DNA of 64,000 nt from Escherichia coli (GCF_024502345.1 NZ_JALDNN010000001.1), one strand, 5' to 3'. Counted from the first letter of the stretch, positions 49,884-51,773 are shown. The notes: generated by a model from the letters alone, not told the origin. Made by a program: numbers and translations.

Positions 49884-50578
49884 TTACTCTTTCTCGGAGT
49901 AACTATAACCGTAATAGTTATAGCCGTAACTGTAAGCGGTGCTGGCGCGTTTAATCACACCATTGAGGATAGCGCCTTTAATATTGACGCCTGCCTGTTC
50001 CAGACGCTGCATTGACAAGCTCACCTCTTTGGCGGTGTTCAGGCCAAAACGCGCAACCAGCAGGCTGGTGCCGACAGAGCGCCCCACGACCGCAGCATCG
50101 CTCACCGCCAGCATCGGCGGCGTATCGACAATCACCAGATCGTAATGGTCGTTCGCCCATTCCAGTAATTGACGCATCCGATCGCGCATCAGCAGTTCAG
50201 ACGGGTTAGGTGGCATCTGACCGCGAGTAATCACATCAAAGCCTCCTTTGCCAAAATGCTGGATCACTTTGTTGAGCTCATCTTTACCTGCCAGATATTC
50301 CGACAAGCCATGTGCATTACTCACGGTAAACAGGTTATGCGAATAACCATGGCGTAAGTCGGCATCAATAAATAACACTTTTTGATCGGACTGGGCGATC
50401 ACCGCTGCCAGAGTTGAACTGACAAATGTTTTACCACTGTCTGGCGTCGCACCGGTGATCATCAGAATGTTATTCTCAGTCTCCATCATAGCGAAATGCA
50501 GACTGGTTCGTAGCGCACGTACGGCTTCCACAGCAGAATCCGCCGGGTTATCCACCGCCAGGAAGGGGATATTTTTAG
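49884..50578 (-). pseudogene. etk: Tyrosine-protein kinase Etk/Wzc family, C-terminal ~230 codons only; 5' part removed at the IS5 junction
   Basis: Walker A/B kinase domain (GATPDSGKTFVSSTLAAV, DLVIVDTPP) and Tyr-rich tail YSYGYNYYGYSYSEKE; reading frame runs into the IS5 end at 50579. Confidence 0.75.
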
Positions 50579-51773
50579 GGAAGGTGCGAATAAGCGGGGA
50601 AATTCTTCTCGGCTGACTCAGTCATTTCATTTCTTCATGTTTGAGCCGATTTTTTCTCCCGTAAATGCCTTGAATCAGCCTATTTAGACCGTTTCTTCGC
50701 CATTTAAGGCGTTATCCCCAGTTTTTAGTGAGATCTCTCCCACTGACGTATCATTTGGTCCGCCCGAAACAGGTTGGCCAGCGTGAATAACATCGCCAGT
50801 TGGTTATCGTTTTTCAGCAGCCCCTTGTATCTGGCTTTCACGAAGCCGAACTGCCGCTTGATGATGCGAAACGGGTGCTCCACCCTGGCACGGATGCTGG
50901 CTTTCATGTATTCGATGTTGATGGCCGTTTTGTTATTGCGCGGATGCTGCTTCAAGGTTTTTACCCTGCCGGGACGCTCGGCGATCAGCCAGTCCACATC
51001 CACCTCGGCCAGCTCCTCGCGCTGTGGCGCTCCTTGGTAGCCGGCATCGGCTGAGACAAATTGCTCCTCTCCATGAAGCAGATTACCCAGCTGATTGAGG
51101 TCATGCTCGTTGGCCGCGGTGGTGACTAGGCTGTGGGTCAGGCCACTCTTGGCATCGAAACCAATGTGGGCCTTCATGCCAAAGTGCCACTGATTGCCTT
51201 TCTTGGTCTGATGCATCTCCGGATCGCGTTGCTGCTCTTTGTTCTTGGTAGAGTTGGGTGCCTCAATGATGGTGGCATCCACCAAAGTGCCTTGGGTCAT
51301 CATGACGCCTGCTTCGGCCAGCCAGCGATTGATGGTCTTGAACAATTGACGGGCCAGTTGATGCTGCTCGAGCAGGTGGCGGAAATTCATGATGGTGGTG
51401 CGATCCGGCAGGGCGCTATCCAGGAATAATCGGGCAAACAGGCGCATGGAGGCGATTTCGTACAGGGCATCTTCCATGGCACCGTCGCTCAGGTTGTACC
51501 AATGCTGCATGCAGTGAATACGCAGCATGGTCTCCAGCGGATAGGGCCGTCGGCCATTGCCCGCCTTGGGATAAAACGGCTCGATGACAGCGGTCATATT
51601 CTGCCATGGCAGAATCTGCTCCATGCGGGAGAGGAAAATCTCTTTTCGGGTCTGACGGCGCTTAGTGCTGAATTCACTATCGGCGAAGGTGAGTTGATGG
51701 CTCATGATGTCCCTCTGGGATGCGCTCCGGATGAATATGATGATCTCATATCAGGAACTTGTTCGCACCTTCC
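50579..51773 (-). mobile_element. IS5, complete (1195 bp), no matching target-site duplication
   Basis: Terminal repeats GGAAGGTGCGAATAAG (50579-50594) and CTTGTTCGCACCTTCC (51758-51773); flanks ttag vs caag. Confidence 0.9.
50725..51705 (-). CDS. insH: IS5 transposase InsH
   Basis: 326 aa [37 protein letters not shown]... Confidence 0.9.

Follow-up and report, generated by a model that had tools for sequence, protein, structure and literature searches.

The window, by which we mean the whole 64,000-nt stretch of Escherichia coli DNA that was analyzed (GCF_024502345.1, NZ_JALDNN010000001.1), carries a piece of the app-etk gene set, a complete IS5 and a lactate utilization block in direct succession (Table 1). 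The data showed that the kinase gene of this set, here called 'etk, breaks off at the IS5.

Table 1 Positions of the features discussed, counted from the first nucleotide of the window
Feature	Position	Strand	Remarks
DeoR/WYL-type regulator gene, 5' fragment	45942..46172	+	77 codons; PF08220 HTH_DeoR, E = 6e-6
appC' (cytochrome bd-II subunit I)	46173..47133	+	N-terminal ~194 codons missing; PF01654 positions 190-418
appB	47145..48281	+	intact, 378 aa; WP_000460803.1 in the identical G3/10 stretch
appX/cbdX small subunit	48294..48386	+	coordinates transferred from the G3/10 annotation (locus offset +37299)
appA (acid phosphatase/phytase)	48466..49764	+	intact island allele, WP_016239723.1
Hairpin and T-run	49775..49800	-	3' of 'etk, between convergent appA and etk; terminator-like, 11 pairs
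'etk pseudogene	49884..50578	-	Etk residues 497-726 (BY-kinase catalytic core, Tyr cluster) and stop codon
TTAG, IS5 target half-site in etk	50575..50578		fits YTAR motif
IS5, complete, 1195 bp	50579..51773	-	both ends read directly; transposase gene 50725-51705 (-)
Spacer, 181 bp	51774..51954		starts CAAG; adjoins the IS5 end in every genome examined
GntP-family permease, C-terminal fragment	51955..52368	+	137 aa; PF02447 positions 310-440 of 440, E = 4e-47
ykgG/ykgF/ykgE (lutC/lutB/lutA-type lactate utilization genes)	52418..55263	-	ORFs and annotation
dld-type D-lactate dehydrogenase	55338..57083	-	ORFs and annotation
L-lactate permease	57471..59024	+	coordinates transferred from the G3/10 annotation
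IS1, right boundary of the lactate block	59226..59994	+	also bounds the block in S43, EC21Z-147, 2018-05-2CC and NCTC11121

The truncated kinase gene, the IS5 and their surroundings

The aligned fragment represents the last 32% of etk (K-12 Etk, 726 aa). Its 230-aa product, which begins with KNIPFLAVDNPADS and ends with YSYGYNYYGYSYSEKE before the stop codon, is 98% identical to the corresponding part of K-12 Etk, with 4 substitutions, and aligns end to end with residues 70-299 of 3CIO (E = 5e-148), the crystallized kinase domain of Etk. The product contains the Walker A (GATPDSGKT), A' (VLFIDADLR) and B (DLVIVDTPP) motifs and the C-terminal Tyr cluster, and it matches the P-loop NTPase families AAA_31 and CbiA in Pfam. 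It thus has the P-loop core and Tyr cluster of the BY-kinases Etk and Wzc and lacks their N-terminal Wzz/GNVR periplasmic domain with its two flanking transmembrane helices; residues 1-496 are missing, and with them the periplasmic domain, the two transmembrane segments and a basic stretch, KRTRLRKKNLFSNQQRHR, which lies just upstream of the break. A sequence-only reading of this locus had stated that the kinase domain and the Tyr-rich tail are present, that the membrane-bound and periplasmic part is gone and that the etk frame runs directly into the IS5 end at 50579, and all three statements were borne out. Upstream of codon 497 the reading frame enters IS5 and then hits a stop. There is no ATG for 'etk in its frame, the earliest possible start being a GTG at 50555, and a promoter scan of 49700-52000 gave no sigma-70-like site able to drive the fragment. 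Read-through from the co-oriented IS5 transposase gene would be the only possible route of expression, and an orphan, soluble Etk kinase core made in this way is a predicted alternative that we regard as less likely. RefSeq PGAP labels 'etk in the identical stretch of strain G3/10 as 'incomplete; missing N-terminus'.

The IS5, of which the window holds one copy only, has terminal inverted repeats GGAAGGTGCGAATAAG and GGAAGGTGCGAACAAG that match at 15 of 16 positions, and its length and imperfect 16-bp repeats agree with those of the element (GGAAGGTGCGAA(T/C)AAG, ~1195 bp). Over its last 200 bp it matches the IS5 copies of K-12 derivatives at 100% identity, and it encodes a single 326-aa DDE transposase (PF01609 DDE_Tnp_1, E = 3.7e-35; PF05598 DUF772, E = 4.7e-20). 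The 4-bp duplication at a YTAR site that characterizes IS5 is missing from this copy. The flanks are TTAG (50575-50578) and CAAG (51774-51777), of which TTAG fits YTAR, the target motif of IS5 (PMC5009759), and CAAG does not. As a control, the IS5 adjoining native gfcA in G3/10 has CTAA on both sides, so that the missing duplication at the window IS5 is real, and the earlier description of the flanks as no duplication was correct. The absence is a matter of the history of this IS5 copy, not of the identity of the element. Intact etk copies, both native and island-borne, read GGGGATATTTTTAG/TACGATGG, that is TTAG/tacgatgg, at the break point between codons 496 and 497; since they carry TTAG there and TTAG fits YTAR, IS5 appears to have entered etk at this site. 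With etk cut and the flanks unmatched, the view that this IS5 marks a secondary rearrangement also stands.

Compared with K-12 (positions 1030000-1054000), only 46173-50578 of the window is homologous, at 98.4% identity: a 4.4-kb piece with the order appC'-appB-appX-appA-'etk. The start of appC' falls on NC_000913 position 1038324 (about codon 195) and is joined bluntly, without microhomology, at 46172/46173 to the regulator stump, which on the island side is a CP4-like island gene and continues in strain Z226-5 as an intact WYL-domain gene. PGAP annotates appC' in G3/10 as a pseudogene. The same comparison with K-12 found no hya, serT, 5' part of appC, etp or gfc in the window, so the arrangement of a native K-12-type locus, with serT-hyaABCDEF and a complete appC on one side and etp-gfc beyond etk, is not found here. 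The left side had been taken for the chromosomal app/etk region; cut at both ends and with appC' fused to island DNA, it is not.

The surroundings of the piece are those of a genomic island. Further to its left lie genes for AlpA, YagK/YfjJ (Gp2), a YfjP-like GTPase, DUF932, WYL/YfjR and YfjS, and the same island genes continue with antirestriction, RadC/JAB, DUF987, CbeA/CbtA toxin-antitoxin and DUF4942 functions. Nucleotides 1-20500 represent the yghQ-glcCDEFGBA-yghJ' region that adjoins the pheV island site. Past 20500 come IS26 and integrase fragments and a defence island (type I R-M/DUF262), then the CP4-like genes with the app-'etk module and, beyond it, IS5 with the lactate block. A tRNA scan of the whole window found none, the island attachment site being out of view, and neither repeat search nor self-BLAST detected a second copy of the module inside the window. 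At no place in 5426 complete E. coli genomes was 80% or more of 26000-50600 covered, so that the overall arrangement of the window was not found again.

On the other side of IS5, the spacer gave no Pfam signal. The GntP fragment is annotated as a pseudogene and does not reach the full-length profile of ~440 positions, and as 181 bp separate it from the IS5 end, it was not IS5 that cut the permease gene; a GntP permease fragment does lie on the far side, as had been proposed, but it does not abut IS5. The lactate block always begins with IS5 and always ends in IS1, with variable DNA past IS1. Found in many contexts in this IS5- and IS1-bounded form, it is not a fixed chromosomal partner. In G3/10 the block extends through mmuPM-tauABCD-hemB to another IS5 variant, an integrase and pheV. 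Native hemB-tauDCBA is also present in this genome at 3.817 Mb, with different protein accessions, so the block to the right of IS5 there is a captured extra chromosomal segment. A search for the empty site of the lactate-block IS5, in which the left flank of S43 and the right flank served as probe, found none, and its partial matches were chance resemblances of the S43 flank to the IS5 end.

Junctions and spare copies in other genomes

Eleven complete genomes, assembled independently of one another, contain the 4-kb region spanning 'etk, IS5 and the lactate block at ~100% identity. The left half of this region, 'etk TTAG-IS5, occurs in 12 of the 5426 complete E. coli genomes and has two different right flanks: the lactate block in 11 genomes, and TTAA with an HTH/RelE pair in ECONIH5, in copy 1 of G3/10 and in CP024673.1. 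The right half (IS5, CAAG, spacer and gntP') occurs in 86 of the 5426 genomes and has at least five different left flanks, which include hsdR (TTAG), mmuP (CTCC), a dapA-like stump (TCAG) and a GIY-YIG gene (CAAG). Where the window has CAAG after IS5, S43 reads CTAAG. The half-junctions are thus module boundaries independent of each other, two of which meet in the window. The reciprocal or simple-insertion junction, in which the IS5 right end is followed by TTAG and the 5' part of etk (TTAGTACGATGG), is absent from all 5426 genomes; metagenome contigs gave no match either, but as they were equally empty for the junction actually observed, which served as positive control, the genome result alone counts.

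The single-nucleotide differences among the IS5 copies appear to follow the two halves. No difference separates the window copy from the etk-linked copy of ECONIH5 in alignment columns 1-582; all 7 differences between them fall at or past column 583. Toward the right end, the window copy shares the alleles T789, A937 and C1137 with the lactate-linked copies, where both copies that lie between 'etk and RelE have A, G and A. It differs from the lactate-linked copy of S43 at 244-678 and at a clade-private site, 849. This pattern, which is drawn from few sites, fits a chimeric IS5 whose crossover lies somewhere between about 680 and 790. Among these sites, the ones in the left half that distinguish the window copy from that of S43 may be private to S43. 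In the lactate-linked IS5s of EC21Z-147 and NCTC11121 the first ~170 bp are strongly divergent, which indicates that exchange within the lactate-linked IS5 has been recurrent.

The left edge of the piece is likewise shared. The junction between island DNA and appC' was found in 16 of the 5426 complete genomes and had no match in species-representative genomes; a chimeric 125-aa ORF across it was found in 296 index blocks of public assemblies, and among the contigs listed for this ORF, 5 of 10 have the full 726-aa Etk. The ORF is also present in the complete chromosomes CP024673.1, CP039327.1 and CP071861.1, which lie outside the RefSeq E. coli set. In other genomes the junction lies in tRNA-Phe or selC islands and is in several cases followed by intact etk-etp-gfcEDCBA. 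The simplest layout is that of AMSCJX03, with the order pheV-integrase-IS903-like-gfcABCDE-etp-etk-appA-appX-appB-appC'-DeoR'. OY754834.1 has an island copy with intact etk-gfc at pheV, and CAVP773 has one in a selC island, with two etk-gfc places in the genome. A family of CP4-like integrative islands carries, beside the integrase end, a chromosomal cargo of ~11 kb (appC' from about codon 195, appB, appX, appA, etk, etp and gfcEDCBA) that duplicates the native locus; in the lineage of the window, the 5' part of etk, etp and gfc are all gone past the TTAG site. The window piece is 100% identical to the island module of C 236-04A, 99.98% identical to copy 2 of G3/10 and 99.7-99.8% identical to the island copies with intact etk-gfc (CAVP773, selC; OY754834.1, pheV), and its identity to the native loci of both K-12 and G3/10 is 98.4%.

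Two genomes that share the junction bear on the status of the fragment. G3/10 (3.119-3.138 Mb) and C 236-04A (3.066-3.085 Mb) have a complete native locus, serT-hyaA-F-appCBXA-etk(2181 nt)-etp-gfc, beside the identical junction of 'etk, IS5 and the lactate block. G3/10 has two copies of the truncated module, of which copy 1 is the more decayed: an IS30 has inserted into it, and its appB and appA are frameshifted. Because both genomes share the junction yet keep an intact native locus, 'etk is the decayed spare copy of a gene; with no membrane or periplasmic part, no basic juxtamembrane stretch and neither promoter nor ATG of its own, it is a dead remnant. Of the earlier interpretation, the rearrangement marked by IS5 holds, but what was rearranged had been misidentified: an intact etk lies elsewhere in both genomes and the copy at the junction is a duplicated fragment, which the earlier reading had itself named as grounds for refutation.

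Probable recombination between IS5 copies and alternative histories

We consider it probable, at roughly 0.7, that the IS5 forms a seam within the mosaic island next to the glc/pheV region and that recombination of two IS5s deleted the 5' part of etk, etp and gfc. The ancestor would have been an island with intact app-etk-etp-gfc cargo, in which an IS5 inserted at TTAG in the island-borne etk. A crossover with the IS5 heading the lactate block, the two copies being in direct orientation on the same replicon, would then have deleted the 5' part of etk, etp, gfc and the intervening DNA, and it would have left a hybrid IS5 with two unrelated 4-bp flanks, TTAG and CAAG. A hybrid IS copy that lacks a target duplication is the textbook mark of recombination between two ISs. 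The lack of the reciprocal junction in the 5426 genomes fits a deletion rather than an inversion. Deletions by IS5-IS5 recombination are common in E. coli, where IS5A took part in 52 of 98 recombination events between ISs (PMC5009759). The postulated intermediate, etk::IS5 with TTAG on both sides, was found in none of the 5426 complete genomes, and no genome was found with intact island etk-gfc and the lactate block on one island in the required order.

A single step could also have produced the junction, if the lactate-block IS5 attacked the TTAG of etk and deleted the DNA between, or if IS5 entered a break; neither a target-site duplication nor a second IS5 would then be expected. The same lack of a simple etk::IS5 insertion in the 5426 genomes speaks for such an event, as do the many left neighbours of the lactate-block IS5, some of them at YTAR (TTAG in hsdR and etk), as if the element were repeatedly deleting, and the local hopping of IS5 (PMC5009759). 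IS movements that leave no duplication and are coupled to large deletions have been described, among them that of an IS5/IS1182 element in E. coli C (bioRxiv 10.1101/2024.06.02.596822), and the window resembles them in having an IS without duplication at the edge of a large deletion; it differs from them in that its half-junctions also occur separately and its IS5 looks chimeric, which favours IS-IS recombination over insertion into a break. Moreover, 'etk TTAG-IS5 is also found with the HTH/RelE flank and other right-end differences (ECONIH5, G3/10 copy 1 and CP024673.1), so that at least one exchange between two IS5s has to be assumed in any case. At the lactate IS5, the left flanks CTCC and TCAG do not fit YTAR, and the lactate-linked IS5s are mosaic in sequence, pointing to homologous exchange. 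We therefore judge a one-step deletion unlikely.

It is highly improbable that IS5 broke the sole native appA-etk-etp-gfc locus, which was then inverted or translocated onto the lactate cluster and left the strain with no functional Etk. In its favour, the window agrees with K-12 in the order appB-appA-etk and in the intergenic region of appA and etk, only 64 kb of the source genome is in view, and 1689 of the 5426 E. coli genomes are without etk-etp-gfcE altogether, so that absence of the native locus is possible. Yet appC is also cut and fused to island DNA 4.4 kb away, hya, serT and the 5' part of appC are lacking, the allele groups with island-borne copies and not with native loci, and both junction-sharing genomes that were inspected keep intact native loci. 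All 16 genomes with the island-appC' junction have a second probe match, which fits a native appC and could also be explained by the other half of the probe, and the reciprocal junction is in none of the 5426 complete genomes. Movement of a composite transposon, IS5-[lactate...hemB]-IS5, into etk as one piece would draw on the fact that the G3/10 block through hemB ends at another IS5 in the same orientation; that distal IS5, however, is a different variant (95.7% identity, 1196 bp) with flanks CTAG/TAAG instead of TTAG, it is followed by an autotransporter gene and not by the 5' part of etk, and the expected junction of IS5 with TTAG and the etk 5' part is the one missing from all 5426 genomes. 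This barely credible model was rejected, as the window has one IS5 and the distal IS5 of G3/10 is a variant with unrelated flanks. An assembly artefact, by collapse or mis-join at a repeated sequence, comes to mind with an element that occupies up to 40 or more places per genome, but its probability is negligible: the identical 4-kb junction was obtained for the 11 complete genomes by different laboratories in different countries, with the left junction in 12 genomes and the right one in 86. The mis-assembly considered as a caveat in the earlier reading can be set aside on the same grounds.

Beyond the proposed recombination between two IS5s, the distribution of the copies hints at a wider history, for and against which we see about equal chances: CP4-like islands at tRNA-Phe and selC would have captured the ~11-kb block of core chromosome, with the whole export operon of the group-4 capsule (G4C), gfcABCDE-etp-etk, next to appA, appX, appB and appC', and, in genomes of the G3/10 type, a second block of ~23 kb (the lactate cluster, mmuPM, tauABCD and hemB), both moving from lineage to lineage and creating partial diploids, with the window as a decayed stage.

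Relation to known systems and meaning

The IS5 of the window resembles the hybrid IS5 copies of E. coli mutation-accumulation lines (PMC5009759) in its 1195 bp, 16-bp repeats and DDE transposase, and in the YTAR site, the unmatched flanks and the associated deletion. In contrast to those copies, the event in the window is old enough to be common to 11-12 sequenced lineages, and it joins two captured blocks within an island where they join places of the core chromosome. With the K-12 G4C locus (gfcABCDE-etp-etk, 22 min, b0981-b0987) the window copy has in common the kinase motifs, the convergence of appA and etk and the same intergenic hairpin; unlike that locus, it is island-borne, ~1.6% diverged, without etp and gfc and cut in appC, and copies of its type are additional to the native locus in related genomes. 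The gene set to the left of the app piece is that of CP4-57/CP4-6-type islands (pheV, pheU, selC, thrW), from which the window island differs in that its integrase-proximal part is replaced by captured app-etk-gfc DNA and that integrase and tRNA are not adjacent. A literature search found no published island-borne copy of gfc/etk.

The kind of event is well known and involves no new mechanism, and the pieces are already annotated as pseudogenes in RefSeq records. For annotation, an etk cut by IS5 carries the risk of a false call, be it loss of Etk/G4C capsule export or a chromosomal rearrangement at 22 min. In related genomes, the Etk/G4C capsule export function resides at the intact native locus, and from these relatives we infer a native etk in the source strain of the window as well. 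Judged by the same relatives, the cut by IS5 appears to be the ordinary scrambling of a spare copy by an insertion sequence, not the loss of the main etk of the strain. A spare, island-borne copy of the G4C capsule export operon is a mildly interesting by-product of this analysis. The locus illustrates how mosaic islands are stitched together from captured chromosomal blocks, with IS5 and IS1 as portable homology.

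Layout of the window and its IS903/IS102-like element

Besides the glc/yghJ flank of the pheV island site, the window contains roughly 40 kb of island DNA. Its overall arrangement was matched in none of the 5426 complete E. coli genomes. No tRNA genes were detected in the whole window (1-64000). A tandem array at the start of the restriction-modification/defence part of the island probably lies within a coding repeat. To the left of the appC'..'etk-IS5 module, which comprises the island-borne appC'-appB-appX-appA-'etk genes and IS5, an IS903/IS102-like element stands in place of 348 bp found in G3/10 and C 236-04A, two genomes sharing the window's junction of 'etk, IS5 and the lactate block. 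The flanks of this element (tatctatgc and actgtgttt) showed no 9-bp target duplication. On the islands of AMSCJX03, CAVP773 and OY754834.1, whose cargo is intact, gfcA adjoins an IS with ~93.7% identity to this element.

Coordinates of the features described in the text
Feature	Location	Details
IS903/IS102-like element	window 43573-44629	1057 bp; ends GGCTTTGTTGAATAAATC
Tandem array	window 26113-26393	48-bp unit, 5.9 copies, 87% match
Right flank of lactate-block IS5, window	51774-51777	CAAG
Right flank of lactate-block IS5, S43	L002 13198-13202	CTAAG
Module copies in G3/10	L004 16656-24354; L001 8661-14474	NZ_CP060075.1
366-bp deletion	window-equivalent 46808-47173	L008 and L005 (CAVP773, OY754834.1); L023, L024, L031
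Tn7-like interruption	L028 7892-13900	GCA_013046085.1
mmuPM-tauABCD-hemB in G3/10	L021, L022	872-883 kb and 3.817-3.821 Mb

Spread and variation of the island cargo

The chimeric ORF at the island-appC' junction, in which a DeoR/WYL gene stump is fused to appC', was found on three complete chromosomes of 4.8-5.0 Mb: CP071861.1 (L023), CP024673.1 (L025) and CP039327.1 (L026). None of the three is among the 16 complete E. coli genomes in RefSeq that carry this ORF; the island may be present in species other than E. coli, or else in records that RefSeq excludes. The app-etk cargo itself varies. Several island copies with intact etk carry a 366-bp deletion that fuses appC' and appB into a single 570-aa ORF, and in one assembly the cargo is interrupted, the island-appC' junction being followed by ~1.1 kb of appC' and then by a Tn7-like tnsABCD-type module.

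The right flank of the IS5 heading the lactate block differs between S43 and the window by 1 bp, a T precisely at the end of the element. All other loci examined have the window's sequence at this position, and CAAG is the left flank of the element in S43. The CTAA in S43 would match the IS5 target motif YTAR.

Duplicated segments in G3/10

The G3/10 genome contains the appC'..'etk-IS5 module twice, ~38 kb apart, and therefore three appB/appA regions, the third being the intact native locus. Copy 1 of the module carries an inserted IS30, its appB and appA are frameshifted, and HTH/RelE follows its IS5. The mmuPM-tauABCD-hemB segment, which includes the essential gene hemB, is likewise present in two copies with differing protein accessions, one in its native place and the other downstream of the lactate block, within the pheV island region. 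The island copy is a second captured chromosomal segment, hemB included.
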